Positions 1 to 45,985 of a stretch of 64,000 bases of DNA are shown here, piece by piece; within the stretch, counting starts at the first letter, position 1; each line of letters starts with the position of its first letter. The notes under the pieces were generated by a model. The model saw only the letters and a list, made by a program, of their open reading frames with translations, was not told where the DNA came from and did no database searches. Source of the DNA: an uncultured Planctomycetales bacterium (lineage in GTDB: Bacteria; Planctomycetota; Phycisphaerae; SM23-33; FEN-1343); NCBI GenBank assembly GCA_964535025.1, contig CAZHRW010000159.1:14527-78526 (forward strand). The letters run 5' to 3'. A program made the position numbers and the translations under genes.

Positions 1-735
1 ATGAGCTGGTACCGCCCGGCGGGCTTCGACGCGTACAAGTACTACGTCGCCTGGGGCACCTTGAACCGCAACGCCCTGCACATGCCCCGCGGCGACGAGG
101 TCAACGGCCGCGCGGCGTGGCTGCTCGGCGAGCAGGGCGGCGATTGGGTCGACTACACCTTCGCGTTCACCGCCAACAACGCCTACCTCGGCTTCGGCGG
201 GGGCGTGGTCGTGCTGGTGCGGGACATGGATAACTGCTATTACCTCGACATCGCCCGCGGCCGTCTGGTGCGCAGGCTCGACGGCGCCGAGACCGTCCTG
301 ACGACCGTCGACGCCATTCAGATGCCCGCCACGGGCAGCCGGCGCTACGCCGTCTCCGTGGATGTCGAGCCGGCGGGCGTGACGATCGCCGTCGACGCCG
401 ACGACGACGGCACGACGGACCTGACCTTCACCGACGCCGATCCGACGGCCCTGGCGACGCTGAACGCCGGCGGCGTGGGCTTCCACTGCAACAACTCCGA
501 CAAGTGGCACGTCCTGCGCTTCGACGACCTCCGCGTCGAGGTCGCCGAGACGCGGAGCGGCGCGTCGGGTGATTGCGACGGCGATGGGGACGTCGATCTC
601 GACGATTTCGCCATTGTCAAGCTCAACTTCGGTCGCTCCGGCGTGACCGCCGGCGCCGCCGAGGGCGACCTGGACGGCGACGGGGACGTCGACCTCGACG
701 ACTTCGCGATCCTCAAGACGACCTTCGGGACGTGA
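1..735 (+). CDS. 3' part of a secreted protein (5' end lies outside the window). The C-terminus carries two dockerin-type repeats (GDCDGDGDVDLDDFAIVK and GDLDGDGDVDLDDFAILK).
   Basis: Open frame runs from the window edge to a stop at 735. The tandem Ca-binding dockerin type-I-like repeats are identical in style to the C-termini of the 9912..14918 and 31007..33328 proteins. Confidence 0.55.
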   Translation: MSWYRPAGFDAYKYYVAWGTLNRNALHMPRGDEVNGRAAWLLGEQGGDWVDYTFAFTANNAYLGFGGGVVVLVRDMDNCYYLDIARGRLVRRLDGAETVLTTVDAIQMPATGSRRYAVSVDVEPAGVTIAVDADDDGTTDLTFTDADPTALATLNAGGVGFHCNNSDKWHVLRFDDLRVEVAETRSGASGDCDGDGDVDLDDFAIVKLNFGRSGVTAGAAEGDLDGDGDVDLDDFAILKTTFGT

Positions 736-9911: not shown

Positions 9912-12900
9912 ATGGAACGTTCGGCAACTCAGCCCCACGGTGGGCATCTCGGCGGTTGTCCGCTTCCCGGTTTCGAGACCCTCGAGCCGCGATTGATGCT
10001 GGCCGGCGACGTGGTGATCTCGGAGTTCATGGCCATCAACGATGGGACGCTGGCCGACGTGGACGGGGATTACAGCGACTGGATCGAACTGCACAACCGC
10101 GGCGACGACGCCGTCGACCTCGACGGGTGGTTTCTCACCGACGATCCGGCCGACCTGACCAAGTGGCGGATCCCCGCGATCACGCTGGCCGCCGGGGAGA
10201 TCGAGGTGATCTTCGCCTCCGACAAGGATCGCGACGACCCGGACGGTGAACTGCACACGGGCTTCAAGCTCAGCGGTTCGGGCGAGTACCTGGCGCTGGT
10301 GATGCCCGACGGGACCTCCATCGCCCACGCCTACGCGCCGACGGTCCAGTACGCCGACGTCTCCTACGGGCTCGACCTGGACGGCAACCCCGCCTACTTC
10401 GACCCGGCCACGCCCGGGGTGCCCAACGCCGGGGACGTGGAACTGCTGCCGGACGTCGAGTTCTCCGTCCAGCACGGCGTCTTCGACGCGCCGTTCACAC
10501 TGACGCTGAGCAGTTCGGTCCAGGATGCGACCATTTACTACACGCTGGACGGCACGGATCCCTACGGGGCGATCGACGCCGTCGAATACACCGGCCCGAT
10601 CGTCATCGACGCGACCACCGTCGTGCGGGCCTATGCCGAGACCTGGGACGCCGAATCCGCGGTGACCACGCAGACCTACATCTCCCTCGCATCGGTCCTG
10701 ACCCAGGGCGACGACCAGACCGCCATCGGCTTCCCCGACATCTGGCACGCCGGGGCCGGCGGCAGCGGCATCTACGACAGCGAATACCGCGACGCCGATT
10801 ACGAGATGGACCCGGACATCATCAACGACCCGGTCTGGGGGCCGCTGCTGACCGAGGCGCTCACCCAGATTCCGTCCATGGCGCTGACGCTGGACCCGTA
10901 CGACTTGTGGGACCCGGAAGACGGCATCTACCCCAACTCGATCCAGCGCGCCAGCCGCGACGACAAGTGGGAAAAGCCCTCGTCGCTGGAGTTGTTTTAC
11001 CCCGACGGCAGCACCGAGGAAGGCTTCACCGTCAACGCCGGCGCCCGCATGTTCGGCGAACTGGCCCGATGGGCCGCGGTCAACGACAAGCAGAGCTTCC
11101 GGATGGTGTTCCAGGGCGAGTACGGCCCGACGAAGCTGGTGACCGACTTCTTCGGCGACTCCGACGTCGACGAGTACGACACCATCGTCATGCGGGCCCA
11201 CTGGGGCAAGTCCTGGCTGCTGGACGAGGCCCTCGGCGACCGGCTGGGGGTTTCCTGGCTGAATTCCGATCCGTCGTCGGCCCAGTACCTCCGCGACCTC
11301 TACGCCCTGACCACCTTCGCCGATACCGGCAACCTCAGCTCCGACGGGCGCATGGTCCACCTGTACCTCAATGGCCTGTACTGGGGCCTTTACGAGGTCA
11401 TCGAACGGCCGGACAACTCCTTCAACGCCGAGCACCGTGGCGGGGACAAGGACGACTACAGCGTCATGAAGGGCGCCGCCGGCACATTCGCCTACCGCGG
11501 CGAGAACACGTATAACATTGGTGTGCACATGCCCTACTACATGTCCAACGGCCGCCTCCAGGACGGTAGCCGCGACATGTGGGACTGGCTCTTCCATACG
11601 TATTTCGATGCCCACGAGGACGGCATCAACATGCTCGAGCGGGACAATGTCACCCCGGTCCGCGGCACGATTAGTGATGAGGAACTGGCCGAGATCGCCC
11701 AATACGTCGACCTCGACAACCTCATCGACTACATGATCACGCTGTGGACGCTCAACCGCGGGGACTTCCCCGGCAAGAACTGGTACGCCGCCTGGGAAGG
11801 CGGCGCCGCCGACACGCCGCCCGACAAGCCGATCCAGTTCTACGTGTGGGACTCCGAAGCGTCCCTGGCCGGTACGGAGATCACGCATTGGACTCCGCCG
11901 GCCGAGCGATGGAACAGCCCCAGCAAGGGTAATGACACCGGCCCGGTCCGCATGTACTGGCGGCTGATCACCAACCAGGGCTTCCGCATCCGCTGGATGG
12001 AACGGGCCCGGGATCTGCTGGGCGACGGCGGGCCCCTCTCGGATGAGGCCTCCATGCAGCGCTACGCGGAGATGGCCTCGCAGATCGACATGGCCGTCAT
12101 CGCCGAATCCGCCCGCTGGGGCGACTCGGCGACGCTGCACATCAACGACCCGATGACCAAGGACGACTGGCAGGCCGAGTACGACCGCCTCATGGCCGAG
12201 TGGTTCCCCGGCCGCGCCGAGATGGTCCTGGCCGAGATGGGGGCGGCGGGGCTGGACGATGCGCCGACGGCGCCCGAGATCGACGTCCCCGGTGGTCTGG
12301 TTCAGCCCGGCACAATGGTGATGCTGAGCACGGTCGGCGACGGCGAGGTATGGTACACGCTCGACGGCACCGACCCCATGGACGGCGTCGGGATGCCGAT
12401 GCCGATGAGCGACCCGCGGCTGCAATGGGCCTTCAACGATACCGGAACCGATCTGGGCACCGCCTGGCGGGAAATCGACTACGACGATTCGACCTGGGGT
12501 ACGGGCACCGGCCGTCTCGGCTATGGCACCGGCGACGAGGATACCGCCATCGGCTTCGGCGACGATTCGCTCGACAAGCACATCACCACCTACTTCCGTG
12601 CCAACATCATCCTGGACGAAGTGCCGGACGATACGGTGACGCTCTACGTCCGCCGCGACGACGGCGTGGCGATCTACGTCAACGGCCATCGCATCGCCGA
12701 GCCGCACGACAATCTGCCCGCCGGCGAGATCACCTACGACACGCTGGCCAGCTCGTCGGTGGCCTTCGGGGCCGAAAACCAGTGGCACACATACGAAGTG
12801 GACCCGTCGCTGTTCGTCGAGGACCACAACGTGATCGCCGCGGAGGTCCACAAGTACAGCCCGCGCGGCTGGGACCTGACCTTCGAGATGACCACCGACC

Positions 12901-14918
12901 TGCCGTTGCAGAGCATCTCGGCCGTCCCCGTCGAACTGTTTACCGACACCCACCTGGTCGTCCGCACGATGCGCGACGGCAAGTGGAGCTACAAAACCGA
13001 GGCCGTCTACATCGTCGACGAGGCCCCGCCCCTGGCGATCACGGAGGTCAACTACAACCCGGCGGCCGCGATGGCGGCCGAATACCAGGCGGGCGCGACG
13101 GACGCCCAGGACTTCGAGTTCATCGAGGTCCACAACCCCACCGGCAATCCGATCCGCCAGATCGGCGCGACCCTGAGCGAGGGCATCACCGCGACGCTGC
13201 CATTGTTCGAACTCGAACCCGGCGAGTACGGCGTATTCGTCCGCGACCGCGAGGCCTTCCAATTGCGGTACGGCACCGACGTGAAGATCCTCGGCGAGTA
13301 CACTCGCCACCTGGGCAACGGGGGCGACCGGATCGTGCTGACCAGCTCCAACGGGGCGGTCCTGGCCGACTTCACCTATGACGACGCCGCCAACTGGCCC
13401 GGCCGCGCCGACGGCCGCGGCGCCACGCTGGAGGTCATCGACACCCAGGGCGACTACAACAGCGACGACACCTGGCGCTCGTCGACCGAGTATCTCGGCA
13501 CCCCCGGCGCCGCCGGGATCGGGCCCGTCGACTCGGTGATCATCAACGAAGTGGTCACCAATCCCGACGGCGGCTCCGACGCGATTGAACTGCACAACCC
13601 CACCGGCGAGGCGATCGACATCGGCGGCTGGTACCTCAGCGACACCGCCGACGAGTACACCCGCTACCGCATCGGCGACGATACGGTCATCCCGGCCGGC
13701 GGATACCTGGTCTTGACGGACGCCGAGCTGGGATTCGGCCTCAGCCGCTTCGGCGAGGACGTCTGGCTCATGGCCGCCGACGGCGACGGGGCCCTGACCC
13801 GGTTCGTCGACCACGTCGAATTCGGCGCGGCCCTGGAGGGGATGCCCTTCGGACGCTATCGGGGCCAGGACGCCGACGGCGATTTCACCGCCCTGGCGAG
13901 CATTACACTCGGCGGGCCCAACGCCGGGCCGTTCCCCAGCGACGTGATCCTCAGCGAAGTCCACTACCATCCCGGCGACCTGGCCGGATCGACTGAGGCC
14001 GACCTGGAGTTCCTCGAGCTGTACAACCGCAGCGATCACCCCGTCCCGCTCGACTGGTACGACGCCAACGGCAACGGCGTCCGCGACGCCGGCGAGCAGG
14101 GCGCCTGGCGGCTGGCCGGCGCCGTCGAGTTCGCCTTCCCGGCCGGCACGACGATCGACCCCGGCGGCACGCTGGTCGTTGTGGGCGCCGCGTCGGTCGA
14201 GGCGTTCCGGACGGCCTACGGGATCGATGAGAGCGTAGCCGTTTTGGGCGCCTGGGACGGCCGGCTGGCCAACGGCCGCGAGCGGATCGACCTGTGCCTG
14301 CCGGCGCCTCTGCGCACCGGGGACACCGAGACGGCCTACGTCGTGGCCGACTGGGTCGACTACAAGGACCACCTGCCCTGGCCCGTCTCGGCTGACGGCG
14401 CCGGCGATTCACTCCACCGCATGCGCGCCTGGGCGTACGGCAACGACGTCACGAACTGGTTCGCCGCCGAGCCCAACCCCGGGCAGGCGGCCCTGACGCC
14501 GGAGGCCCTGGAAGGCGATCTGAACCACGACCTCCAGGTCGACGGCGTCGACATCGGCCTGATCAACCGGGCTGTCCGCGAGGGGGCGACCGATCTGCGG
14601 TTCGACCTGGACGGCGACGGGGACGTCGACGGCGCCGACGTGGACTACCTGCTCCAGGGGATCCTCGGCACGCACGCCGGGGACTTCAACCTCGATGGGT
14701 ACGTCGACCTCGACGACTTCGACGCGCTCAAGACCGGCTTCGGCAAGCCCGCCGGCTGGTCCGGCGGCGACGCCAACGGCGACGGGAGGGTCGACCTGGA
14801 GGACTTCGCCATCCTCAAGAAAAACTACGGCGCCCAGCCGGTCCAGCAGGCCGATCCGGACAACCTGCTGGCGCCCCTGGACGTCCTGGCCGAAGTCGCC
14901 GCCGGCCCCCTTGGGTAG
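9912..14918 (+). CDS. giant secreted CotH kinase-like protein with four lamin-tail domains (LTD) and C-terminal dockerin repeats
   Basis: 1668 aa. LTD signatures VVISEFMAINDG...DWIELHN, ITEVNYNP...FIEVHNPTGNPI, VIINEVVTNPDG...IELHNPTGEAI, VILSEVHYHP...LELYNRSDHPV. CotH core MVHLYLNGLYWGLYEVIERPDNSF. C-terminal DLDGDGDVDGADVDYLL, GDFNLDGYVDLDDFDALK and GDANGDGRVDLEDFAILK dockerin repeats. N-terminal motif ETLEPRLMLAGD. Confidence 0.75.
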   Translation: MERSATQPHGGHLGGCPLPGFETLEPRLMLAGDVVISEFMAINDGTLADVDGDYSDWIELHNRGDDAVDLDGWFLTDDPADLTKWRIPAITLAAGEIEVIFASDKDRDDPDGELHTGFKLSGSGEYLALVMPDGTSIAHAYAPTVQYADVSYGLDLDGNPAYFDPATPGVPNAGDVELLPDVEFSVQHGVFDAPFTLTLSSSVQDATIYYTLDGTDPYGAIDAVEYTGPIVIDATTVVRAYAETWDAESAVTTQTYISLASVLTQGDDQTAIGFPDIWHAGAGGSGIYDSEYRDADYEMDPDIINDPVWGPLLTEALTQIPSMALTLDPYDLWDPEDGIYPNSIQRASRDDKWEKPSSLELFYPDGSTEEGFTVNAGARMFGELARWAAVNDKQSFRMVFQGEYGPTKLVTDFFGDSDVDEYDTIVMRAHWGKSWLLDEALGDRLGVSWLNSDPSSAQYLRDLYALTTFADTGNLSSDGRMVHLYLNGLYWGLYEVIERPDNSFNAEHRGGDKDDYSVMKGAAGTFAYRGENTYNIGVHMPYYMSNGRLQDGSRDMWDWLFHTYFDAHEDGINMLERDNVTPVRGTISDEELAEIAQYVDLDNLIDYMITLWTLNRGDFPGKNWYAAWEGGAADTPPDKPIQFYVWDSEASLAGTEITHWTPPAERWNSPSKGNDTGPVRMYWRLITNQGFRIRWMERARDLLGDGGPLSDEASMQRYAEMASQIDMAVIAESARWGDSATLHINDPMTKDDWQAEYDRLMAEWFPGRAEMVLAEMGAAGLDDAPTAPEIDVPGGLVQPGTMVMLSTVGDGEVWYTLDGTDPMDGVGMPMPMSDPRLQWAFNDTGTDLGTAWREIDYDDSTWGTGTGRLGYGTGDEDTAIGFGDDSLDKHITTYFRANIILDEVPDDTVTLYVRRDDGVAIYVNGHRIAEPHDNLPAGEITYDTLASSSVAFGAENQWHTYEVDPSLFVEDHNVIAAEVHKYSPRGWDLTFEMTTDLPLQSISAVPVELFTDTHLVVRTMRDGKWSYKTEAVYIVDEAPPLAITEVNYNPAAAMAAEYQAGATDAQDFEFIEVHNPTGNPIRQIGATLSEGITATLPLFELEPGEYGVFVRDREAFQLRYGTDVKILGEYTRHLGNGGDRIVLTSSNGAVLADFTYDDAANWPGRADGRGATLEVIDTQGDYNSDDTWRSSTEYLGTPGAAGIGPVDSVIINEVVTNPDGGSDAIELHNPTGEAIDIGGWYLSDTADEYTRYRIGDDTVIPAGGYLVLTDAELGFGLSRFGEDVWLMAADGDGALTRFVDHVEFGAALEGMPFGRYRGQDADGDFTALASITLGGPNAGPFPSDVILSEVHYHPGDLAGSTEADLEFLELYNRSDHPVPLDWYDANGNGVRDAGEQGAWRLAGAVEFAFPAGTTIDPGGTLVVVGAASVEAFRTAYGIDESVAVLGAWDGRLANGRERIDLCLPAPLRTGDTETAYVVADWVDYKDHLPWPVSADGAGDSLHRMRAWAYGNDVTNWFAAEPNPGQAALTPEALEGDLNHDLQVDGVDIGLINRAVREGATDLRFDLDGDGDVDGADVDYLLQGILGTHAGDFNLDGYVDLDDFDALKTGFGKPAGWSGGDANGDGRVDLEDFAILKKNYGAQPVQQADPDNLLAPLDVLAEVAAGPLG

Positions 14919-23961: not shown

Positions 23962-24148
23962 CACGCAATCCTTGCGTGAGCGCCGTTGACGAATACGTGA
24001 AAACCCGCGACACGGAACACCAGTGATTCGTTCCGTCACGTCACCCGTCATGCCATGGATCGGCGGATTTTTCCCCTCTTCTTTCCCCTTGACCCCGGGC
24101 GCCAACTGTGATATGAACGCCGCCTCATTCAACGAGCGAATATTCATA

Positions 24149-24853
24149 ATGCCGAATAAGCACTCAACGAGAGACGCCGGCCGCAAGCTTGCCCGCAAGG
24201 AGCGGGAGCGCCGGCGGCATCGCCGCGAGATCCTCGACGCCGCCGAGGCGGTGTTCGTTCGCAAGGGCTATGCGGCGGCGACGGTCGACGAGATCGCCCA
24301 GGAGGCCGAGTTCGCCGTCGGCACGCTGTATAACTTCTTCCAGGGCAAGGACGACCTGTATGCCCACGTCATGCGGAAGATCGTCGAGGACTTCATGGAG
24401 GCCTTCGAGACGCAGGTGTTGAGCCTGGACGATCCGATCGAGGCGATCACCGCGCTGATCGAGCTGCGATTGACGCATTTCGACGAGCATTGGGCCTTCT
24501 TCCGCGTGTTCCTGGAAACCTCCCCGGTCGGCCTGATCGACACGGCGCGGGTGCTGCCGGCGACAATCGTCGAGCAGCGCGACCGGTACCTCCGGGCGGT
24601 CAGCCGCCTGTTCGAAGACGGCGTGGCCCGCGGCGCCTTCGACGAGATCGATCCGCTGTACCTGACGCTGTGCCTGGAGGGGATGATCAACGCCTTCTTC
24701 TCGTACTGGTTCCGCCACAAGCCCACCGAGCCGCTGGCCGTGCGGGTAGAGAAGATGACCGCCGCCTTCCTCGGACGGGGGAAGATCCGCCCGGCGGACC
24801 ACCCGCCCGCGGCCGGCAGCCTCAACCGCAAGCGTCAAGGCAATAAGGAGTAA
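24149..24853 (+). CDS. TetR/AcrR family regulator of the efflux operon
   Basis: ILDAAEAVFVRKGYAAATVDEIAQEAEFAVGTLYNFF is a TetR HTH; start MPNKHST. Confidence 0.8.
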   Translation: MPNKHSTRDAGRKLARKERERRRHRREILDAAEAVFVRKGYAAATVDEIAQEAEFAVGTLYNFFQGKDDLYAHVMRKIVEDFMEAFETQVLSLDDPIEAITALIELRLTHFDEHWAFFRVFLETSPVGLIDTARVLPATIVEQRDRYLRAVSRLFEDGVARGAFDEIDPLYLTLCLEGMINAFFSYWFRHKPTEPLAVRVEKMTAAFLGRGKIRPADHPPAAGSLNRKRQGNKE

Positions 24854-24860
24854 CCTCGCC

Positions 24861-26399
24861 ATGGGCAACGATGGTCCCGCGCTTGTGAACATCCCCCCGA
24901 CGGCCCCGCGACGGTGGCTGGGACCGGCCCTGCTCGCGGTCGCCCTGGCGGCCGGCGGCTGCATAAGCGGAGCCGCCGGTCCCGAGCAGGTCTACAACGA
25001 CCGCGTCGCGGTCTACGAGCGCTGGCAGCGCGGCCGTGAGGCCGACGCCGAGACCCTGCCGGTCCTGTCGGGGCGGCTGAGCCTCGCCGACGCCGTCAAG
25101 GTCGCCCTGGCCTACAACAAGTCCCTCCTGGCCGTCCTCCAGGACAAGCGGATCGCCCGCGGCCGCGTGGTTGCCTCCTACGCCGAGGCGCTGCCGACCG
25201 TGACAGCCCAGGCGAGCTACACGCGGCTGGACGAGGTGACGAGCTTCAACGCCGGCGGGCAGTGGATCTCGACGGGCGAGTTGGACAACTACGCGGTCGA
25301 CCTGAGCGTCCGCCAGCCTGTCTACCGCGGCGGGGCGATCCGCTCGGCGATCCGCGGCGCGGAACTGTTCGCCCATCTGACCGACGAGACGGTCCGCGCC
25401 GGCGTCCAGGCCGTGGTCTACGACGTCGCGGCCACGTACTACGCGACGCTGCTGGCGCGGCAGCTCTACGAGGTCAACCGCCAGGCGGTCGTTTCCGCCG
25501 AGGCGCACCTGGCCGACGTGCGGACAAAAGCCGAGCAGGGCGTCGCGTCGCGGTTCGACGTGCTTCGCGCCCAGGTGGATGTCTCGAACTTCCAGGCCGA
25601 GATGATCCGCCAGCAGAACCGGCTGAACCTCGCCCGTACCCGGCTGCTCAAGACGATGGGCGCCTCGCAGGATACGCAGGTCGTCCTCAGCGACGAGTTG
25701 ACCTACCATCCGATCGAGCCGTCGGAGGCCGAGGCGGTCCGGCTGGCGTATCTCCGCCGGCCGGACCTCTACCGGGCCGAGCTGGCCGTCCGCCTGCAAA
25801 GCGAGGCCGTCCGGATCGCCCGCAGCGCCTATTGGCCGAGGATCGACGCACTGTTTACCCAAGGCTGGGCCCGACCCGACCCCCACACGTCCACCGACGA
25901 CTGGGGCGACCGGTGGACGGCGGGCGTGCAGGCGGAGATCCCGATCTTCGACGGGCTGCGGCGCGAGGGCCGCCTGATCGAGGAGAAGGCGGCGCTGGCG
26001 CGCCGGCGGATCGAGCGCGACGACGCGACCGACCAGGCCCTGCTGGAGATCCGCCAGGCTCTGCTGAGCGTGGAGGACGCCGAGCAATTCGTCGCCAGCC
26101 AGCGGCTGAACCTCGAGCGGGCCCACGAGGGGCTGCGGCTGGCGGAGGTCGGCTACCGGGAGGGCGTCAACACGGAGGTGGAAGTGGTCGACGCCCGCGC
26201 CGCCCTGACGCGGGCGCGGGGCTTGTATTACCAGGCGGTCCATGATCACGCGCTGGCCCGGCTGGCCCTGCAGCGGGCGACGGGCGGCCTGGCGCCGCCG
26301 CCGGGCGAGACCGCCGTCGAAGCCGTGCCGGCGCTGAGACCGCCGCACGAAGAGGCGCTCGAGCCGACCTCGGCGCCGGCGGGAGCAAACAACGAATGA
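24861..26399 (+). CDS. outer membrane efflux protein (TolC/OprM family, lipoprotein)
   Basis: Lipobox LAAGGC. Two OEP repeats with coiled-coil/beta-barrel pattern. Confidence 0.8.
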   Translation: MGNDGPALVNIPPTAPRRWLGPALLAVALAAGGCISGAAGPEQVYNDRVAVYERWQRGREADAETLPVLSGRLSLADAVKVALAYNKSLLAVLQDKRIARGRVVASYAEALPTVTAQASYTRLDEVTSFNAGGQWISTGELDNYAVDLSVRQPVYRGGAIRSAIRGAELFAHLTDETVRAGVQAVVYDVAATYYATLLARQLYEVNRQAVVSAEAHLADVRTKAEQGVASRFDVLRAQVDVSNFQAEMIRQQNRLNLARTRLLKTMGASQDTQVVLSDELTYHPIEPSEAEAVRLAYLRRPDLYRAELAVRLQSEAVRIARSAYWPRIDALFTQGWARPDPHTSTDDWGDRWTAGVQAEIPIFDGLRREGRLIEEKAALARRRIERDDATDQALLEIRQALLSVEDAEQFVASQRLNLERAHEGLRLAEVGYREGVNTEVEVVDARAALTRARGLYYQAVHDHALARLALQRATGGLAPPPGETAVEAVPALRPPHEEALEPTSAPAGANNE

Positions 26400-27589
26400 A
26401 ACGCATCGTCAAGACACTGGCGGTCCTCATCGCCCTCGCCGTCGTCGCGGTGGCGTCGGTGATCGGCTATCAGCAGGTTCAGCGGACCCCGGCAGCGTCC
26501 AAGTCACCCGCCACAACGCGGCCGGCCGCCGATCCCATCGAGGTGACGGTGGCGCCCGTTCGCACCGGGCGGGTGAGCCGTACCATCGAGGTGACCGGCG
26601 AGGTGCGCCCCTTGAAGGCCGTCCAGGTGGCCCCGGAGGTCGGCGGGCGCCTGAAGCGTCTGCGGCTGGCCGACGGGACGCTTATCGAGGAGGCCGTGGC
26701 CGTCCGTCGCGGCGACGTGGTGGCCGTGATCGATCCGGTCCGCTACCGCGCGGCGGTCGAGGCGGCCGAGTCGGGCGTGACGGTGGCCCAGGCCGCGCTG
26801 GGGCGGGCCGAGGTGACGCTCGCCGACGCCCGGCGCGAGAAGGAGCGATGGACCCGCCTGGTCGCCGACGGGGCGGGCACGCAGCGGGACCTGGACCAGG
26901 CGCTGACCGCTTTCGAGCGGGCCGTCGCGGAGGTCGATTATGCCCGGGCCCAGGTCCAACAGGCCGAGGCCCGGCGCGTGGTCGCGCAGGTGGACCTCGA
27001 CGAAACGACCGTCGAGGCGCCCTTCGACGGCGTGGTAACCCGGACGTTCGTCGACGAGGGCGCCTACGTCGGGCCGGGCACGCCGCTGTTCGCCCTGGCC
27101 GACCTCCACGCCGTCGAAATCACCGCCGGCGTGGCCGACCGCTACTATCCCCGCCTGGTCGTCGGCCGGACCGAAGCATCGGTCGAGGTGGACGCCTGCC
27201 CGGGCGAACGCTTTTCCGGCCGCGTCTGTCGCATCCGGCCGGCGATGGACCAGGCCACGCGGACGGTGCCGGTCACGATCGAGGTGCCCAACGGTGACAG
27301 CCATCTGACCGGCGGGATGTACGCCCGCGTCCGGCTGGTGCTCGAACAGCGCGACGACGTGCCGGTCGTGCCCGACGCGGCCCTCGTCCGCACCGCCGGC
27401 GCGGTCCGCGCCTACGTGGTCGAGGACGGCCGGATCCGGGTGCGTCCGGTGACGCTGGGGCTCACCGAGGGGGCCACGTGCGAGGTGACCGACGGGCTGC
27501 GCCCGGGTGAACGGGTGGTCCTTCGCGGCCAGCGGCTGCTCAGCGAGGGTATGGCCGTCCGGCCCATCGAGAAGGAGCCGGGGCGATGA
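26396..27589 (+). CDS. RND efflux periplasmic adaptor (membrane fusion protein, HlyD/AcrA family)
   Basis: N-terminal TM, lipoyl/beta-barrel domains. ATGA overlap with the OMF stop. Confidence 0.85.
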   Translation: MKRIVKTLAVLIALAVVAVASVIGYQQVQRTPAASKSPATTRPAADPIEVTVAPVRTGRVSRTIEVTGEVRPLKAVQVAPEVGGRLKRLRLADGTLIEEAVAVRRGDVVAVIDPVRYRAAVEAAESGVTVAQAALGRAEVTLADARREKERWTRLVADGAGTQRDLDQALTAFERAVAEVDYARAQVQQAEARRVVAQVDLDETTVEAPFDGVVTRTFVDEGAYVGPGTPLFALADLHAVEITAGVADRYYPRLVVGRTEASVEVDACPGERFSGRVCRIRPAMDQATRTVPVTIEVPNGDSHLTGGMYARVRLVLEQRDDVPVVPDAALVRTAGAVRAYVVEDGRIRVRPVTLGLTEGATCEVTDGLRPGERVVLRGQRLLSEGMAVRPIEKEPGR

Positions 27590-30500
27590 ATCTTCCAGGG
27601 ACCTCCGTTCGCCGGCCGGTCATGACGCTCATGGTGTTCCTGGGCGTGATCCTCGTCGGTGCGTTCTGCCTGGTCCAGATGCCCATCGACCTGTTCCCGG
27701 AGATGGACATCCCCTCGATCACCGTGGTGACGCCCTATCCCGGGGCCGGGCCGGAGGAGATCGAGGAGAAGGTCACCCAGCCATTGGAGAAGCGTCTCGC
27801 GACCGTCGAGGACATCAAGCACATCGTCTCGACCTCGCGGGAGGGGATGTCGACGATCCGCCTGCAGTTCGACTGGGAGACCGACCTCGATACCCGCGCC
27901 AACGACGTCCGCGACGCGATCGATATGGCCCAGCAGGAGGTCCCCGACGAGGCCGAGCGATCCCGGATCTTCAAGCTCGACCTGAGCGAGTTCCCCATCC
28001 TCGTCTACGGGGTCTTCGCCGAGGCCTCCTACGAGGACCTCGAGGACATCCTCGACGAGGAGGCGGCCAACCCGCTGGAGGGGATCCCGGGCGTCGGGTC
28101 GGTCCGCGTGATCACCCCGCTGCAGCGGCAGGTCAACGTGGATCTCGACCGCGAGCGGCTCGCCGCCCACGGGCTGGTGGTGGCCGACGTCGCCGGCGCC
28201 GTGGCCCGGGCCAACCGCCAGTCGTCCGCCGGCAGCATCAAGATGGGCGACACCGACTACCTGCCCCGCGTGCCGGCCGAGTTCGAGTCAGTCGAGCCGA
28301 TGAACGACATCGTCGTCCGCGCCGATGACGCCGGGATCGTGCGCCTGGGCGACCTCGGCACCGCCCGGGACGGGTTCAAGGACGTTCAGCTCGACGTCCG
28401 CGTCAACGGCAAGCGCGGGGCGCTGCTGATGGTCCAGAAGCAGTCCAACGCCAACACCGTCGAGGTCGCCCGCGCCGTCGAAGCCAGGCTCGCGCGGATC
28501 CTCGACAGCGGACGACTGCCCGCCGACGTGCAAATCGTCAACGTGATGGACTCCTCCGAGGACATCGAGCGGATGGTCGCCGACCTGGCCCAGACGCTGA
28601 TCATCGGCGGCGTTCTGGCCGTCGCCGCGGTGTTCGTGTTCCTCCGCCAGACCACCGGCACGCTGGTGATCGCCCTGACCATCCCCTTCGCGCTGATCGC
28701 CTCGGGAACGGCGATGTACCTGATGGACTACTCGATCAACATGATGACGCTGTTCGCGCTGATCGTGGCGCTGGGAATGGTGGTCGACAATGCGATCGTC
28801 GTCCTGGAGAACATTGCCCGCCACCGCGAGAGCGGCGAGCGGCTGGCCGAGGCGGCCACCTTCGGCGCCGCCGAGGTGTCCATGGCGATTGTCGCCTCGA
28901 CGATGACGACCCTGTGCATCTTCTTCCCCCTGCTGTTCGTCAAGGGGATCGCCCGGATCATCTTCAAGCCCTTCGCCGTCGTGGCCGCCGTGGTGATGCT
29001 CGCATCGCTGCTGACGGCGCTGACCATGACGCCCATGCTCAGCTCCCGCCTGCTCAAGCGCGGCCGTGACCGCGCGCCGGGCCGTTTCTTCCGGGCCACC
29101 GAGGCCGCCTTCAACGGCATGGCCGACGGCTACGCCTGGCTGCTGGGCTGGTGCCTGCGCCACCGCGCCGTGGTGATCGTGATCGTTCTGGCCGCGTTCG
29201 GCGGCAGCCTCGCGCTGGTGCCCGCGATCGGGTTCGAGTTCATGCCCAAGGAGGACCGCGCCCTGGTTCGGGGAACGATCGAGCTGCCCGTGGGCACCCG
29301 CCTGGAGCGCACGGCCGAGGCGCTGGAGGCGGTCGCGGCCGAGATCGACGCCGCGATCCCCGACGACCAGGTCCGCGCGGTGTTCACGCGGTGCGGGGTC
29401 AGCGAATCGGGGTTCAGCAGCGACGAGGGGACCCACATCGGTTCGTTCGGCGTCAAGCTCGTCCCGCGAGGCCGGCGCGACCGGCACGTCACGGAGATCG
29501 CCGACGACCTGCGCGAGCGGATCGCCCGCATCGCCGGGCGCTGCGGGATCGTGACGTTCCGGTTGGACCTCAACGATCCGATGTCGTCCATGGCCACCGG
29601 CGGCGAACAGCCGGTGAGCGTCAACATCCTCGGCGACGACCTGGACGTCGCCGACGCCTACGCCGCCCGCCTGGCCGGGCAGGTCCGCGAGGTGCCCGGG
29701 ACCGTCGACATCAGCATCTCCCGCGAGAAGGGCGCCCCCGAGGTCTGGGTCGACGTCGACCGCCGGAAGGCCTCGGCGCTGGGGCTGAACGCCTCCGACG
29801 TAACCGAGACGGTTCGCGCCAGCGTGTACGGCACGATCGCCAGCAAGTACCGCGTGCGGGGCGACGAGTACGACATCTTCGTCCGCCTCCGCGAAGCCGA
29901 CCGCGGCCGCCTGGACGACCTGCGCCACCTGCCCCTGCGGCTGCCGACCGGCGAGCTGGTTCGCACCGAACACGTCGCCGAGATCACCCGGCAGCGGGGG
30001 CCGCTGGAGATCGAGCGGAAGGATCAGCGCCGCATCGTCCGCGTCGAAGGCGACGCGCACGGCCGCTCGGTGGGCGAGGTGATCCGCGACGTCCAAGACC
30101 TCGTCCACGCCAGCGACGTGCCGGCCGGCGTCACCGTGACGATGGGCGGGCAGAGCGAGGATATCCGCGAGTCGTTCCTGTGGCTGTCGATCGCCCTGGT
30201 GATCGGGGCGCTGCTGGTCTACATGGTGATGGCCTCGCAGTTCGAATCGCTCATCGACCCGTTCGTCGTCATCTTCTCGGTGCCGGTGGCCTTCCTCGGC
30301 GTGATCTGGTTCCTCTTCCTGCGCGGATACAGCCTGAACATCATCGTCTTCCTCGGCTTGCTGCTGCTGGTGGGCATCGTGGTCAACAATGCCATCGTTC
30401 TGGTCGACTACATCAACATCCTGCGCGCCCGCGGGCGCTCCATGACCGAGGCCGTCCAGGAAGCCGGCCGGACGCGGCTGCGGCCGGTGCTGATGACCGC

Positions 30501-30699
30501 GATTACGACGATCGTCGCTCTGGTGCCGATGGCGTTCAAGCAGGGCCAGGGCTCGGAGGTGTGGAACCCGCTGGGCGCAACGATCATGGGCGGGCTGCTG
30601 GTGTCGACGCTGGTGACGCTGGTGCTGGTCCCCACGTTGTACAGCCTCTTCGAGCGCCGCGTCCGGCGTGGCCCGGAGGCGGAAGGAGCACGGCCGTGA
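27586..30699 (+). CDS. RND efflux transporter permease (AcrB/CzcA superfamily)
   Basis: 1037 aa, 12-TM with two large periplasmic loops. ATGA overlap with the MFP stop. Confidence 0.9.
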   Translation: MNLPGTSVRRPVMTLMVFLGVILVGAFCLVQMPIDLFPEMDIPSITVVTPYPGAGPEEIEEKVTQPLEKRLATVEDIKHIVSTSREGMSTIRLQFDWETDLDTRANDVRDAIDMAQQEVPDEAERSRIFKLDLSEFPILVYGVFAEASYEDLEDILDEEAANPLEGIPGVGSVRVITPLQRQVNVDLDRERLAAHGLVVADVAGAVARANRQSSAGSIKMGDTDYLPRVPAEFESVEPMNDIVVRADDAGIVRLGDLGTARDGFKDVQLDVRVNGKRGALLMVQKQSNANTVEVARAVEARLARILDSGRLPADVQIVNVMDSSEDIERMVADLAQTLIIGGVLAVAAVFVFLRQTTGTLVIALTIPFALIASGTAMYLMDYSINMMTLFALIVALGMVVDNAIVVLENIARHRESGERLAEAATFGAAEVSMAIVASTMTTLCIFFPLLFVKGIARIIFKPFAVVAAVVMLASLLTALTMTPMLSSRLLKRGRDRAPGRFFRATEAAFNGMADGYAWLLGWCLRHRAVVIVIVLAAFGGSLALVPAIGFEFMPKEDRALVRGTIELPVGTRLERTAEALEAVAAEIDAAIPDDQVRAVFTRCGVSESGFSSDEGTHIGSFGVKLVPRGRRDRHVTEIADDLRERIARIAGRCGIVTFRLDLNDPMSSMATGGEQPVSVNILGDDLDVADAYAARLAGQVREVPGTVDISISREKGAPEVWVDVDRRKASALGLNASDVTETVRASVYGTIASKYRVRGDEYDIFVRLREADRGRLDDLRHLPLRLPTGELVRTEHVAEITRQRGPLEIERKDQRRIVRVEGDAHGRSVGEVIRDVQDLVHASDVPAGVTVTMGGQSEDIRESFLWLSIALVIGALLVYMVMASQFESLIDPFVVIFSVPVAFLGVIWFLFLRGYSLNIIVFLGLLLLVGIVVNNAIVLVDYINILRARGRSMTEAVQEAGRTRLRPVLMTAITTIVALVPMAFKQGQGSEVWNPLGATIMGGLLVSTLVTLVLVPTLYSLFERRVRRGPEAEGARP

Positions 30700-30986
30700 A
30701 GCTGACGCTGATCACTTACAACGCGGCGATCGACGACGAGGTGATCGAGCAGGTCGCCGCCGTCGGCGCCGAAGGCTACACCAAGTGGACCGGCGTGATG
30801 GGTCAAGGCCGCACCAGCGGCCCCCATCTGCTCAGTCACGTCTGGCCCAAGGGCAACAACGTCCTGCTCGCCGTCACCGACGATGACGTCGCCGACCGGC
30901 TCCTCGCGGCGGTCCGCCGTCTGCGGGAAACCCTCGGCCGCGAGGGCGTCAAAGCCTTCGTCCTCAATGTCGACGCGGCCACCTGA
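30696..30986 (+). CDS. small PII-like (GlnB-like superfamily, DUF3240-like) protein translationally coupled to the RND pump
   Basis: GTG at 30696 overlaps the RND TGA. The 96-aa product VKLTLITYNAAIDDEVIEQVAAVGAEGYTKWTGVMGQGRTSG... fits a beta-alpha-beta-(T-loop)-beta-alpha-beta PII fold pattern. It is the in-frame tail of shadow ORF 29151..30986. Confidence 0.5.
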   Translation: MKLTLITYNAAIDDEVIEQVAAVGAEGYTKWTGVMGQGRTSGPHLLSHVWPKGNNVLLAVTDDDVADRLLAAVRRLRETLGREGVKAFVLNVDAAT

Positions 30987-31006
30987 GCGGACCCGGTGCG
31001 GGCGCG

Positions 31007-33328
31007 CTACGGGCCGGCAAAGCAGTGCTTGAGGATGGAGAAGTCGTCGAGGTCGACGTCCCCGTCGCCGTCAAGGTCGCCGTTGGCCTCGGTGGCGCCG
31101 GCCGCCATGCCGAAGTGGCACTTGAGGGTGGCGAAATCGTCGAGGTCGTAGCTGCGCTGGGGCACCTCGAAGGCGCCGATGTCGACCGCCTCGCCCTGGG
31201 GGCGGGCGGTCCCGTCGAGGTCGACGCCGATATCCAGGCCGTAGAGGCTTTCGAACAGGTCCACGTAGGCCTCGAGGCCGGCGCCGGCGTCGATGGCCGG
31301 GCTGGGATCGCTCGCCAGGGCCGGCCGCAGGTCGCCGGCGGCGGGGTCGACAAACCGCGGGTCGGCTTCGAGGTTGGCCCAGGCGTGATCGCCCCAGGCG
31401 GCCTGGAAGGCGTCGACGCCGTGAAGAACCGTGGAAGTCGCCCACTTGATCCGGGCGCTGCCGCCGGGCTGGTGGAACAGGTTGTGGGTGACCTGCGACC
31501 CGGCCGCCACGTCGGCGGAGGTGACGGCAAGGTGATGGGACGGCTCAGCGAGGTTGGCGACGATGTTGTTGTGGATGAACCAGCGCTGGTTGCCGCCGGC
31601 GGGGCTGGCAATGCCGGCGTCGACGTCGTGGATCGTGTTGCCCGCGATATGCACCTGGCCGTTGCCCCACCCGATGATCGCGGCGCCGGGCGACCAGGCG
31701 CTGTCGGGATTGTACTCGCCGCTGACGTGGTGGATGTCGCGGATGACATTGCCGAGGATGTAGGCGGTCACGGCCCCGTTGGAGCGGATGCCGTTCTGGC
31801 TGTTATAGATCTCATTATCGAGGATCCAGACGTTCTCGGGGTCGCCGTGGACCACCACGGCTGTCCCGTCCGAGCCCGAGCCGTTGGGGAAGGTCACCGG
31901 CGCGTAGCCGTACATGACGTTTTCGCTGAGGATCACGTCGCGGCTCTGCTTGACGTCGATGGCGTTCTCGCGGTTGTGGTCGATCAGGTTGCGGCCGACG
32001 TAGATCGAGGTGGCGACGTAAGCGGCGTAGGCGGCATTGTAGTAGAGCTGCACGCCATCCTCGCCGTTGCGGGTCATGCGGTTGTCCACGATCCACACCC
32101 GCCGGCTGTTGCCCTGGGGCGTGATGGCGTGCAGGCCGGTCTCGTCGGTGGGCGCGGGCGTGTTGTCGTGGATGTCATTGTCGTAGAAGACGATGTCGTC
32201 GTTGAAATGCCGCTCGGCGTCCCCGCCGAGGGTGTCGGAGACGGGCAGGACGGCCCACACGGCCCGGAACCCCGTCTCCAGGGGCGCCAGGTTCGTCGCC
32301 TCGCCGTGACGGATCGCCACGTGGTCCGAGGGGTTCAGCACCCGCAGGTAGCCTTCGGCGGTCCCCACGGTGTCGGTCCGGAAGTATTCCAGGACCAGAT
32401 ACGAGCCCCGCACGCGGACCTCGTTGGCGAACACGGCGCGGGCGCCGGGGCCGGCCCCCCGGACGAAGATCGGACGTTCGGCCGTGCCCCGCCCGGTGAT
32501 GCCCAGCCGCGGACCGTGGTAATTGGCGTAGGTGTACGGCCCGCCGTGGACCTCGACGACGCTGCCGGGGGGCAGATCGAGCGGGATCGTCCGACGCGGC
32601 CGATCGGGCGTGCCGAAGGGGTTCCCCGCGTCGGTGGCGTCGCCGTGGGCGTTGTCGATGTAATGGGTGTAGGGTCCGTCGGCGCCGAGGCGGTAGGGCT
32701 TGGGGCCGTCACCGTAGTCGAAGGTGTGTGAGGTGTCGGCGTACATCCAGTGCGTTTCCTCGATGCCGAACGACGGCGCCGGCACGCCGACCGGCGGGAC
32801 CCAGCAGCCGACCCGCTGCACCCGGACCGCATCGGCGACCAGCAGCCCTTCGCCGGTCAGCCGCACCGACAGCGTCTCGCCCCGCACCAGCAGCGGCGCG
32901 CCCAGGTCCTCCCAGGCGGTCTGGGCCTCGGTGAAGTCGTCCGGCGCGCTCCGCTGGTCGACGAGCAGCTCGCCGAGCATGCGGGTCGTCTGGCCGTCGA
33001 GGGGGTTGGCGATCGTGAATCGCGCCGCGGCGGCGCGGTCGGCGGCGGCCGTCCACGACGCCGACACGCGGTAGTGGTAGCCCGGGCACAGACCGGTGAA
33101 CGTCCACGTGGCCTCGGCGCCGGCCGTGCCGGTCGTGCGTGCGTCGCCGTCGTGGCCGGCGGTTTCGATCGTCCAGGCGCCGGTCGTCGTGAAACCCGCG
33201 CCCCCATCGTCGACGATCCGGGGCAGGGTCAGCGGGTCGGCGCTGAGCAGCAGGCGGTGTTCAAGCGTCTCCATCAAGGCACGCGCGCGGGGGCGCGGCC
33301 TGTCGTGGCGTCGGTCGGGCTGCATCAC
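31007..33328 (-). CDS. secreted right-handed parallel beta-helix (pectate-lyase-fold) protein with C-terminal dockerin repeats
   Basis: Repeated GNxIxDxxxGI beta-helix rungs (NVIRDIHHV..., IAGNTIHDVDAGI..., FIHNNIVANL). C-terminal ANGDLDGDGDVDLDDFSILK. N-terminal METLEHRLLLSAD motif. Confidence 0.7.
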   Translation of the reverse strand: MMQPDRRHDRPRPRARALMETLEHRLLLSADPLTLPRIVDDGGAGFTTTGAWTIETAGHDGDARTTGTAGAEATWTFTGLCPGYHYRVSASWTAAADRAAAARFTIANPLDGQTTRMLGELLVDQRSAPDDFTEAQTAWEDLGAPLLVRGETLSVRLTGEGLLVADAVRVQRVGCWVPPVGVPAPSFGIEETHWMYADTSHTFDYGDGPKPYRLGADGPYTHYIDNAHGDATDAGNPFGTPDRPRRTIPLDLPPGSVVEVHGGPYTYANYHGPRLGITGRGTAERPIFVRGAGPGARAVFANEVRVRGSYLVLEYFRTDTVGTAEGYLRVLNPSDHVAIRHGEATNLAPLETGFRAVWAVLPVSDTLGGDAERHFNDDIVFYDNDIHDNTPAPTDETGLHAITPQGNSRRVWIVDNRMTRNGEDGVQLYYNAAYAAYVATSIYVGRNLIDHNRENAIDVKQSRDVILSENVMYGYAPVTFPNGSGSDGTAVVVHGDPENVWILDNEIYNSQNGIRSNGAVTAYILGNVIRDIHHVSGEYNPDSAWSPGAAIIGWGNGQVHIAGNTIHDVDAGIASPAGGNQRWFIHNNIVANLAEPSHHLAVTSADVAAGSQVTHNLFHQPGGSARIKWATSTVLHGVDAFQAAWGDHAWANLEADPRFVDPAAGDLRPALASDPSPAIDAGAGLEAYVDLFESLYGLDIGVDLDGTARPQGEAVDIGAFEVPQRSYDLDDFATLKCHFGMAAGATEANGDLDGDGDVDLDDFSILKHCFAGP

Positions 33329-44610: not shown

Positions 44611-45927
44611 CTAGCCCGATGAGCCGCGCGTTGAACGCCATTGTTCGTACGCGTCGTGGCTGGCGCGATAGATGTTCACCCAGATCGGGCTTTGCAGGAT
44701 CGGATCGCCCGCCGCTTCGAGCCAGCGCCAGAGACGGTCGTTCAGGTCCGCCTCGACCGCCGCGACGTCCGCGCGGCCGGAGAGGTTGTCGAACTCCAGC
44801 CGGTCGGCGGCGAGGTCGTACAGTTCCGTCACCGGGCAGGTATCGGGTTCCTTCGCCGGGGCGGTGATGTCGACGGGTGTGCGGAACGTCCTGAGGTTGG
44901 AGAAGTTTCGGATGAGTTTGTGCGTGCGCGTTCGCACACAGCGGGCCTCGGGTTGACTGCCGCCCATGAGGTACATTGCGAAGATCGCCTCCCGCGTCGC
45001 CGGCGCCGCGGCATCGCGAAGCAGGGCGGTGAACGGAATGCCGTCCAGGTCATAGGGCGGCGCCATGCCGATCAGGTCCAGCAGCGTCGGCGTCACGTCA
45101 ACATTGGAAATGAGGTGGCCCACCCGTCGCCCGCCGTCCACGCCGCCGGCCGGCCAGCGGACCAGGAAGGCCGTCTCGATGCCGGGATCGTAGAGGTACC
45201 ACTTGGCGCGGGGAAACTCCAACCCGTGATCGACCGTGAAGACGACGAGGGTGTCATCCGTGAGGCCGTTGTCGTCCAGGGCCTTGAGGATGATGCCCAC
45301 CGCGTCGTCCACCTTCCGCACCGCCCCCTGCAACTGGGCGGCGTCCGCCCGCGCGGCCTCGTTATCCACCAGGTACGGCGGCACCGTCACGCCCTTGCTC
45401 GCATCAGGCTTGACGCCGCCGACGTCCCATTTCCGGTGCGTCTCGCCGAACCCGATCTGTGCGTAAAAGGGGCGCTCGTCCGAACTCGCCGTGGCAGCGA
45501 ACGATGCGAAGGCCTCGGCGACCGTGTCGGCCGGGCGGTGAACCCCTTCCTGTTTGGCGTACCACTCCTCGAACGCCAGCCGGTCAATGTCCCACGGCAT
45601 CACCTCGTGCTGATGGTAGAACAGCACCGTCCGGTAGCCCCCGTCGCGCAGGATGTGCGAGAGGTGCCGCACGTCGTCGTGGAAGGTCCAACTGGACGGC
45701 GGATGCGACAGGCCCATCAGCCCGTTGCGCTGCGGCCACAGCCCCGTCATCATCGCCCCGCGGGAGGGCGAACAGACCGGCGACGTGCAGAAGAACTCCT
45801 CCAGCAGCACCCCCTCGGCCGCCAGGCGGTCGATGTTGGGCGTGTGGACCGTCTCCACGCCGTAACAGCCGAAATGACGCCCGGTGTCGTGGGTGGTGAT
45901 ATAGACGATATTCGGTCGCCGGGCCAT
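44611..45927 (-). CDS. sulfatase (formylglycine-dependent arylsulfatase family)
   Basis: PNIVYITTHDTGRH...CTSPVCSPSRGAMMTG, i.e. the C-x-P-x-R FGly motif. Confidence 0.85.
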   Translation of the reverse strand: MARRPNIVYITTHDTGRHFGCYGVETVHTPNIDRLAAEGVLLEEFFCTSPVCSPSRGAMMTGLWPQRNGLMGLSHPPSSWTFHDDVRHLSHILRDGGYRTVLFYHQHEVMPWDIDRLAFEEWYAKQEGVHRPADTVAEAFASFAATASSDERPFYAQIGFGETHRKWDVGGVKPDASKGVTVPPYLVDNEAARADAAQLQGAVRKVDDAVGIILKALDDNGLTDDTLVVFTVDHGLEFPRAKWYLYDPGIETAFLVRWPAGGVDGGRRVGHLISNVDVTPTLLDLIGMAPPYDLDGIPFTALLRDAAAPATREAIFAMYLMGGSQPEARCVRTRTHKLIRNFSNLRTFRTPVDITAPAKEPDTCPVTELYDLAADRLEFDNLSGRADVAAVEADLNDRLWRWLEAAGDPILQSPIWVNIYRASHDAYEQWRSTRGSSG

Positions 45928-45985
45928 GGGCGCCTCCGGTTCGATCAGGCTAAGCTCTTTTCTCTGCGTGGGCTACGGCGCCATT

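Follow-up and report, generated by a model that had tools for sequence, protein, structure and literature searches.

The window analysed here is a stretch of 64,000 nucleotides (nt) from an uncultured Planctomycetales bacterium (contig CAZHRW010000159.1), with a G+C content of 69%. It matches positions 63,642-127,641 of MLSed_10000151, a contig of 131,512 bp in Joint Genome Institute (JGI) metagenome 3300001533. Two of its genes are our subject: one, on the minus strand, encodes a protein with a right-handed beta-helix (33328..31007; N-terminus MQPDRRHDRPRPRARALMETLEHRLLLSADPLTLP), and the other, on the plus strand, encodes a protein with CotH and LTD domains (9912..14918; N-terminus MERSATQPHGGHLGGCPLPGFETLEPRLMLAGDVVIS). 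Both open with a leader that consists of a short, Arg-rich, non-hydrophobic stretch followed by L-E-x-R-x-L-L-[S/A]-x-D. An earlier note on this DNA had described the same short motif about 20 residues into both proteins, and it does start at residues 19 and 22, respectively.

A known motif at two N-termini

We ran a strict form of the motif (E.LE.R.[LM]L[SA].D) over the six-frame translation of the window, as the earlier note had proposed. It matched at exactly two sites, nt 33271 (minus strand) and nt 9975 (plus strand), both N-terminal, lying 22-27 codons past an in-frame stop and heading open reading frames (ORFs) of 754 and 1647 further codons. In 200 first-order Markov simulations of the window the strict motif was expected 0.0 times, against the 2 occurrences observed, and a looser core, E.LE.R.[LMIV][LMIV], 0.005 times. 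The DNA encoding the two copies differs at most synonymous positions, which argues that the motif is conserved, or selected, at the protein level and is not an RNA or DNA element; conservation at the RNA level was rejected on the same ground.

Before the CotH motif there is a single usable start codon, ATG 9912, and the candidates for the beta-helix gene are a GTG/ATG pair at 33328/33325. Because in-frame stops sit just upstream, mis-called starts cannot create the motif, a source of error that the earlier note had allowed for. It is the reverse that has happened: the public JGI gene call of the CotH protein starts at M29 ('MLAGDVV...', 1640 residues) and cuts the motif off. The leader region lost in this way is 9912-9998 (+) of the window, and no record exists of the 1668-residue form that begins at ATG 9912. 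Such clipping of the leader by gene callers can be systematic.

By profile match, the shared motif is the already curated LEPR-XLL domain (NF012209), alias the 'planctomycete extracellular' motif Planc_extracel (PF07595). Curated models have existed in Pfam since 2004 and, later, in NCBIfam. NF012209 passes its NCBIfam cutoff of 17 bits on both proteins (19.5 bits over residues 17-34 of the beta-helix protein and 21.0 bits over residues 20-35 of the CotH protein); PF07595 scores 17.8 and 18.1 bits, respectively, below its gathering score of 25.5 (E~0.002, profile positions 4-20 and 7-20). The literal sequence strings gave no match in the literature searched. The motif is not new, and the window adds two members to a known family.

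The two leaders resemble LEPR-XLL ('LEPR-8K') in being strictly N-terminal segments of about 24 residues, with an LE-P/x-R-x-LL core, on carriers of extracellular or adhesin type. However, that model is named after giant proteins of about 8000 residues, and the CotH protein has LM in place of LL. At 773 and 1668 residues, the window proteins are not the multi-thousand-residue repeat proteins associated with LEPR-XLL; since many of the planctomycete members that we sampled are mid-sized, giant size is a tendency of the family and not a requirement. The likeness to Planc_extracel lies in the published consensus RRLxxExLExRxLLA, which is N-terminal on predicted cell-surface proteins of Rhodopirellula baltica (as relayed in PMC8567305), with the difference that the beta-helix protein has only a weak RRL part (RARAL) and the CotH protein has none.

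In the account that PMC8567305 gives of it, Studholme, Fuerst and Bateman (2004) proposed the motif as a novel export signal on predicted cell-surface proteins of R. baltica. A variant, LxLExLExRxxP (also written LExLExRxxP), occurs in 52 genes of Tuwongella immobilis and on 8 of its 10 longest proteins; 20 of the 52 motif proteins were found by proteomics, 8 of them exclusively in the envelope fraction soluble in sodium dodecyl sulfate, and the domains listed in that paper are trypsin, Ig-like and integrin-beta (PMC8567305). LEPR-XLL has also been described on a Vibrio protein of about 8000 residues with C-terminal RTX/serralysin domains (PMC10868602) and on Chlorobium chlorochromatii proteins of 36,806 and 20,647 residues, with SapC and TolC homologues flanking (bioRxiv 10.64898/2026.03.19.712371).

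When the strict motif was back-translated and scanned against one genome for each GTDB species, at least 119 loci were obtained (below, L-numbers denote the DNA loci compared and P-numbers homologues of the beta-helix protein). Among the loci listed, 53 are N-termini of long ORFs, from Planctomycetota (34), Proteobacteria (15) and other groups (4). A further 43 are false positives antisense to nuoF, and 23 are miscellaneous. The antisense class, found in high-GC Actinobacteria and Proteobacteria, consists of sense GAYICGEETALLESLEGK read as ...LALERLEQRGLLAADVGAGA (L009, L016, L033, L058, L077 and about 38 further loci) and is a systematic trap for six-frame regex searches. This class, with the many spurious ORFs that high-GC DNA yields, is what would favour reading the window motifs as chance similarity or as upstream non-coding read-through via mis-called starts. 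Such an artefact is hardly credible in view of the in-frame stops, the position of the only usable start codons ahead of the motif, the chance expectation, the matches to curated models and the retention of the motif in orthologues at 43-71% identity to the beta-helix protein.

Among the matches listed, 43 curated leaders have a median of 27 residues before the motif, a net charge of +6 and no hydrophobic core. Their consensus, RRR-L-[RL]-[LF]-E-x-L-E-x-R-x-L-L-[AS] and then [AG], matches the published one; only the positions outside the search pattern (RRR-L-[RL]-[LF] before it and [AG] after [AS]) count as recovered. The beta-helix leader (18 residues, +4) is typical of this sample. The CotH leader has 21 residues and a net charge of 0, and some leaders are only 1-12 residues long and without positive charge (L112, L099, P0008).

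The leader at the place of a signal peptide

From its N-terminus, the beta-helix protein consists of the LEPR leader, a Golvesin_C/carbohydrate-binding module (CBM)-like module, the right-handed beta-helix, a choice-of-anchor-Q segment and a degenerate dockerin, with matches to Beta_helix and Golvesin_C in Pfam and to choice_anch_Q and LEPR-8K in NCBIfam. Its AlphaFold2 model has a predicted local distance difference test score (pLDDT) of 88 and a predicted template modelling score of 0.89. Residues 1-29 have a pLDDT below 50, and in the model the leader lies outside the fold. A PDB sequence search with the protein gave no match; Foldseek, run on the model, returned GH136 lacto-N-biosidase, GH87 alpha-1,3-glucanase, the alginate epimerases AlgE4 and AlgG, and CBM6-type modules. 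The mature protein is predicted, from the model, to be an extracellular carbohydrate-active enzyme.

For the CotH protein, a contig from a planctomycete metagenome-assembled genome (MAG) offers a close parallel: in L012:1-8000 (JAAYZK010000178), a LEPR-LTD gene (MLEGLEPRLLLAGDLWITELMAVNDG..., with a C-terminal dockerin) adjoins a CotH-LTD-dockerin gene, from which the CotH/LTD architecture of the window emerges as a recurrent planctomycete family. LEPR is directly followed by an LTD domain in L020, L053 and L103 as well.

Ahead of the motif, both N-termini lack a hydrophobic core. For the beta-helix N-terminus the highest Kyte-Doolittle value over 9 residues is 1.2; the highest value of the CotH N-terminus, 2.3, is located after the motif. 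With E, E and R invariant inside the sole Leu-rich stretch, these are not classical Sec signals of the signal peptidase I type, in which an uninterrupted hydrophobic h-region of about 7-15 residues stands between an n-region and a small-x-small cleavage site. A twin-arginine translocation (Tat) signal was also considered for the LEPR N-termini and rejected, there being neither RR-x-FLK nor an h-region. The same organism has Sec or lipoprotein signals on its DUF6298 protein, both heparinase-like proteins, the OEP of an efflux operon and a second, 923-residue beta-helix protein, and a Tat signal is present on an aldo-keto reductase of the window.

LE.R.LL is found near the start in 7 of the 105 homologues of the beta-helix protein, and these have no hydrophobic core except for P0004, whose hydrophobic upstream extension resembles a mis-called start. 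Most of the remaining homologues have a textbook signal peptide directly ahead of the conserved W.PPIGIP.P.FGIEE.H core. The closest homologue comes from a MAG labelled Planctomycetota. The orthologue P0002, 71% identical (L210, GCA_048622735.1, JBMCUH010000017), retains both the LEPR leader and the dockerin; its gene adjoins hisA-like and carB genes, which also lie about 7-10 kb from the window gene (partial synteny), and its neighbours include GH127 and apiosidase-like glycosidases. As judged from predicted sequences, the leader replaces the classical Sec signal peptide on extracellular-type proteins among these homologues. This bears out the earlier note, which had seen an N-terminal motif instead of a hydrophobic signal peptide: a classical signal is absent from both LEPR proteins and present on the 923-residue protein, and most of the other homologues have a Sec signal at the same place.

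The leader might nevertheless be an unusual Sec signal, with an Arg-rich n-region, a short interrupted h-region (L..LE.R.LLL[SA]) and an [SA]-x-D cleavage site, that is exported by the canonical SecA/SecYEG machinery. Its N-terminal position, the basic residues before it and the Sec signals at its place in homologues would suit this explanation, and the canonical SecA of planctomycetes has rearranged wing and scaffold domains that might shift signal preference (PMC4452313). We nonetheless consider it unlikely, because the segment nowhere has 7 or more hydrophobic residues in a row, its would-be h-region contains an invariant Arg and two invariant acidic residues, and the shortest leaders listed above have no positive charge. 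The organism has textbook signal peptides for its other proteins, and the motif is also found on proteobacterial giants with C-termini of the type I secretion system (T1SS) kind (PMC10868602).

Dockerin repeats and gene neighbourhood

The earlier note had placed C-terminal dockerin repeats on both LEPR proteins and at the end of a truncated ORF at the left edge of the window. If a dockerin is two tandem Ca2+-binding repeats of ~22 residues at or above the Pfam Dockerin_1 (PF00404) gathering score of 22.9 bits, this holds for the CotH protein and for the truncated ORF; in the beta-helix protein the module is degenerate, with one complete repeat and a half repeat in which the first Ca loop is missing, and its 18.1 bits fall under the gathering score. 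The full-length protein behind the truncated ORF has 923 residues (L002:10956-13727, minus). Its N-terminus, which lies beyond the window, starts MVGRRRARGVCLCLAAALVTAATAGG, a classical Sec signal peptide, and has no LEPR motif. Because this protein has the same tail behind an ordinary Sec signal peptide, the dockerin is a module separate from the leader.

We also built a local repeat hidden Markov model (HMM) from the window's own dockerins. It matches only P0001, P0002 and P0004 (close LEPR homologues), the window proteins and L012; among the matches listed, it finds dockerin repeats of the window type on none of the 13 complete LEPR ORFs from other genomes. A homology search with the dockerin module returned only fragments of 46-113 residues. 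The repeats are best read as an independent, shuffled Ca2+-binding module that is not part of the export signal and that probably tethers or stabilises the exported protein at the cell surface. That motif and dockerin together define a family cannot be upheld, given the Sec signal on the third dockerin protein and the count of 0 among the 13 listed LEPR ORFs.

A different role for the dockerins is conceivable in classical type I export, which runs C-terminus first: the repeats would serve, in the manner of RTX repeats, both as signal and as folding ratchet, and LEPR would be a late-emerging retention or anchoring element. Ca2+-binding dockerins do stand at the very C-terminus of all three window proteins, LEPR-XLL occurs on giants with C-terminal RTX/serralysin (PMC10868602) and HemolysinCabind domains, and it adjoins TolC and SapC in Chlorochromatium (bioRxiv 10.64898/2026.03.19.712371). 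However, in the 923-residue protein this type of dockerin is combined with a Sec signal peptide, which means that the dockerin cannot be a dedicated T1SS signal. Its absence from the 13 complete LEPR ORFs speaks against this explanation too, as does the lack of ABC-type T1SS genes beside the window genes, where the adjacent tripartite pump is of the resistance-nodulation-division (RND) type. We therefore regard type I export of the window proteins as quite unlikely.

In the earlier note, LEPR and dockerin marked the components of a cellulosome-like scaffold with its own sorting route. That non-cellulosomal dockerins are frequent in Planctomycetota had been reported before (Andrei et al. 2019, PMC6461901, and, as cited there, Peer et al. 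2009), and a cohesin/dockerin 'planctosome' has been proposed, speculatively, for the Phycisphaerae-related Nemodlikiaceae (PMC6461901). What the window shares with these systems is that type-I dockerin repeats at the C-terminus, and LTD domains, are carried by extracellular proteins of Planctomycetota that are not cellulolytic; leader and dockerin occur together on two window proteins and on the close homologues P0002, P0004 and L012. In contrast, the published model needs cohesin-bearing anchor and adaptor proteins, and its components carry ordinary signal peptides of 26 residues; Pfam found no cohesin on any called gene of the window ±10 kb. LEPR proteins in general are without dockerin, that of the beta-helix protein is degenerate, and the third dockerin protein has a Sec signal. 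A scaffold thus seems very unlikely, with nothing here that points to one. The other half of the suggestion was a dedicated route for export or sorting; this is the hypothesis that the literature favours, and the homologue comparison is consistent with it.

The remaining content of the window, which includes a sulfatase, a DUF6298 protein, two heparinase II/III-like proteins, housekeeping genes and an RND efflux operon, fits a polysaccharide-degrading planctomycete (Table 1). The sulfatase/DUF6298/heparinase-like cluster suggests that sulfated glycans are degraded and places the beta-helix enzyme in a functional context. The efflux operon, which is of the RND type and not a type I protein exporter, lies directly against the 3' end of the beta-helix gene. 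One of two Rce1-like genes sits in a TetR-Rce1-MFS-AMP-binding-hydrolase cluster just upstream of the CotH/LTD gene. Rce1-like/CPBP proteins were considered as LEPR leader peptidases, with nothing in favour beyond the presence of the genes.

Table 1. Features of the window and of the compared loci (L-numbers); positions without an L-number refer to the window. MFP, membrane fusion protein; RRE, recognition element of ribosomally synthesized and post-translationally modified peptides.
Feature	Position	Strand	Evidence or remark
LEPR-leader beta-helix gene, 772/773 residues, secreted-type carbohydrate-active enzyme (predicted)	31007..33328	-	ORF
Arg-rich leader of beta-helix protein ahead of motif, residues 1-18	33272..33325	-	net charge +4, without hydrophobic core
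LEPR-XLL core motif of beta-helix protein, ETLEHRLLLSAD, residues 19-30	33236..33271	-	regex; NF012209; PF07595
Golvesin_C/CBM-like beta-sandwich, residues 37-170	32816..33217	-	PF25275 34.1 bits; Foldseek: porphyran-binding CBM, CBM6
Degenerate beta-helix dockerin, half repeat YDLDDFATLKCHFG and full repeat GDLDGDGDVDLDDFSILKHCFA	31016..31147	-	local HMM 11.7, 44.4 bits
CotH/LTD gene, 1668 residues: LEPR leader, LTD x4, Fn3_assoc/CHB_HEX_C, CotH kinase-like domain, C-terminal dockerin	9912..14918	+	
LEPR-XLL core motif of CotH/LTD protein, ETLEPRLMLAGD, residues 22-33	9975..10010	+	regex; NF012209; PF07595
CotH/LTD dockerin double repeat, residues 1590-1640, then 28-residue tail	14679..14831	+	Dockerin_1 42.8 bits; local HMM 36.8, 47.4 bits
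ORF, C-terminal 244 codons of 923-residue beta-helix protein; dockerin double repeat at nt 568-729	1..735	+	Dockerin_1 32.5 bits
TetR-OEP-MFP-RND (AcrB-like, 1037 residues) efflux operon, then small P-II-like gene	24050-31000	+	
Two Rce1-like/CPBP intramembrane protease genes	3344-3964 and 17863-18795	+	PF02517; within 64 kb
Cluster of sulfatase, DUF6298 and two DSE-like/heparinase II/III-like proteins (one with F5/8 type C)	44611-47437, 62645-64000, L007:995-5767	- (in window)	ordinary signal peptides on all
Operon DUF3467, GAF-MFP, PqqD-like-M50(HELGH)-HlyD, short SecA (~660 residues), MFP	L059:304-3488, L074:1-6163, L128:4595-13908, L129:5536-12831, L200:8128-14123		beside LEPR or giant adhesin genes
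N-terminal PqqD-like (RRE-type) domain on M50-HlyD protein	L200:9983-10963; L128:7858-10008; L129:7849-9996; L074:3032-6163	+ (L200); - (L074)	

A secondary SecA module as candidate export machinery

Among 33 ORFs neighbouring proteobacterial LEPR genes, a short SecA paralogue directly followed by an HlyD-family adaptor stands beside the LEPR gene in L059 and L074. The short SecA paralogues have 664-673 residues, are 51% identical to each other and score below all SecA equivalog cutoffs; their family comprises more than 100 clusters at 55-80% identity. By tblastn, an HlyD orthologue adjoins the LEPR gene in L104, L100 and L032 too, which brings the count to 5 of the roughly 12 proteobacterial LEPR loci with visible neighbours, and an M50-like protein is found in L104 and L059. 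A TolC-like OEP adjoins the LEPR gene in a Desulfomicrobium locus. In L104:1631-4166 (Ca. Thiodiazotropha chromosome OZ242974), two insertion sequence transposases (DDE_Tnp_1_4, IS1595) replace the short SecA between the M50-HlyD and HlyD genes.

Two long contigs have the order giant Cadherin/PKD/RTX- or dockerin-bearing protein, DUF3467, GAF-MFP, a membrane protein of about 715 residues, short SecA and MFP. The ~715-residue protein has HELGH within a transmembrane segment and gives weak matches to M50 and HlyD. An N-terminal PqqD-like domain at a constant position reaches 29.6 bits in L200 (gathering score 23.4) and 16.7-18.9 bits in three other loci. NCBIfam models show this M50-HlyD protein to be weakly similar to maturation metalloproteases of ribosomally synthesized and post-translationally modified peptides (RiPPs).

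A reverse search retrieved 80 metagenome loci (870 kb) with an M50-HlyD alignment. Together they hold 8 N-terminal LEPR ORFs, versus 0 in a reversed-sequence control, and for 6 of the 8 the order is GAF-MFP, M50, short SecA, MFP, LEPR ORF. L200 is the one locus with a planctomycete-looking LEPR gene immediately after the short SecA. An ORF of at least 1000 codons ends just before the operon in 14 of the 27 loci with enough upstream sequence.

The operon corresponds to the locus of 'secondary SecA_DEAD' proteins described by Kamneva, Poudel and Ward (2015; PMC4452313), which have GAF-HlyD, Peptidase_M50-like and HlyD neighbours, often with SapC nearby, and whose description does not mention the PqqD-like domain. 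The module was listed there (S2 table) for R. baltica (RB142-146), Blastopirellula, Pirellula staleyi, Planctomyces brasiliensis and Phycisphaera mikurensis; no substrate was named, and its role was called 'completely unknown'. We found no paper in the literature searched that links it to LEPR-XLL, and the tie proposed here is our own. The phyla in which the module occurs (Planctomycetes including Phycisphaera, Verrucomicrobia, Proteobacteria and Chlorobi) coincide with the range of the LEPR leader, and in Proteobacteria-type contigs the module directly adjoins LEPR or giant genes. Given these common phyla, the neighbouring genes and the RRE-like domain, LEPR-XLL proteins are good candidates for the module's substrates. 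RiPP systems offer a further likeness, since there PqqD-like RREs occur with M50-type proteases (the daptide and YydH/LiaK families), and a short N-terminal substrate leader would suit the same logic. They differ in that the putative substrates here are large proteins with folded domains and not small peptides.

The LEPR leader sits at the position of a Sec signal on proteins that would work outside the cell, namely a glycan-active enzyme with CBM and beta-helix and a CotH/LTD surface protein, from which we infer that it targets them to a non-classical export or sorting route. A route dedicated to LEPR proteins is plausible on the evidence of the predicted proteins, and we hold it somewhat probable, on balance, that the leader serves a non-classical route, preferably through the secondary SecA module, with the dockerin independent of it. 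The preferred route would be a T1SS-like assembly of GAF-HlyD, PqqD-like-RRE-M50 protease-HlyD, short SecA and HlyD, with or without TolC and SapC. In this scheme, leader binding would fall to the RRE-like domain, translocation would be driven by the short SecA, and the intramembrane M50 protease would remove the leader. We infer this step solely from gene adjacency in other phyla, and offer only tentatively the specific proposal that the LEPR-XLL/Planc_extracel leader may be the substrate signal of this orphan module (with or without TolC, SapC and DUF3467).

Several observations weigh against this interpretation. We know of no experiment, in any organism, that shows the LEPR leader to be needed for export or to be cleaved. 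The 34 Planctomycetota LEPR loci listed (94 neighbour ORFs) have no enrichment for SecA, HlyD or M50, and tblastn finds no module component in these loci, in the window or in its flanks; the link to secondary SecA accordingly comes from Proteobacteria-type contigs. The module is present in only 'some' Planctomycetes (Kamneva et al., PMC4452313), and Tuwongella, in which the LExLExRxxP variant is abundant, is not among the planctomycetes listed with it. Proteobacterial LEPR giants often have C-terminal RTX/T1SS features (PMC10868602; also in the loci compared here), so that a classical T1SS could export them, with LEPR serving another purpose. In the window itself, the PF07595 matches are sub-threshold and the uncharged CotH leader is atypical.

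Gene calling and signal-peptide prediction routinely lose or overlook the LEPR leader, and a call such as that of JGI, which deletes it, implies that secretome estimates for Planctomycetota are biased. The adjacency of LEPR genes to the secondary SecA operon, together with the RRE-like domain on the M50 protease, provides a concrete and genetically testable hypothesis for the export mechanism. If it is true, Planctomycetota, Verrucomicrobiota, Proteobacteria and Chlorobiota would export large surface proteins through a hybrid Sec/T1SS-like pathway that recognises leaders in the manner of RiPP systems, and the two window proteins would be clients of ordinary size.

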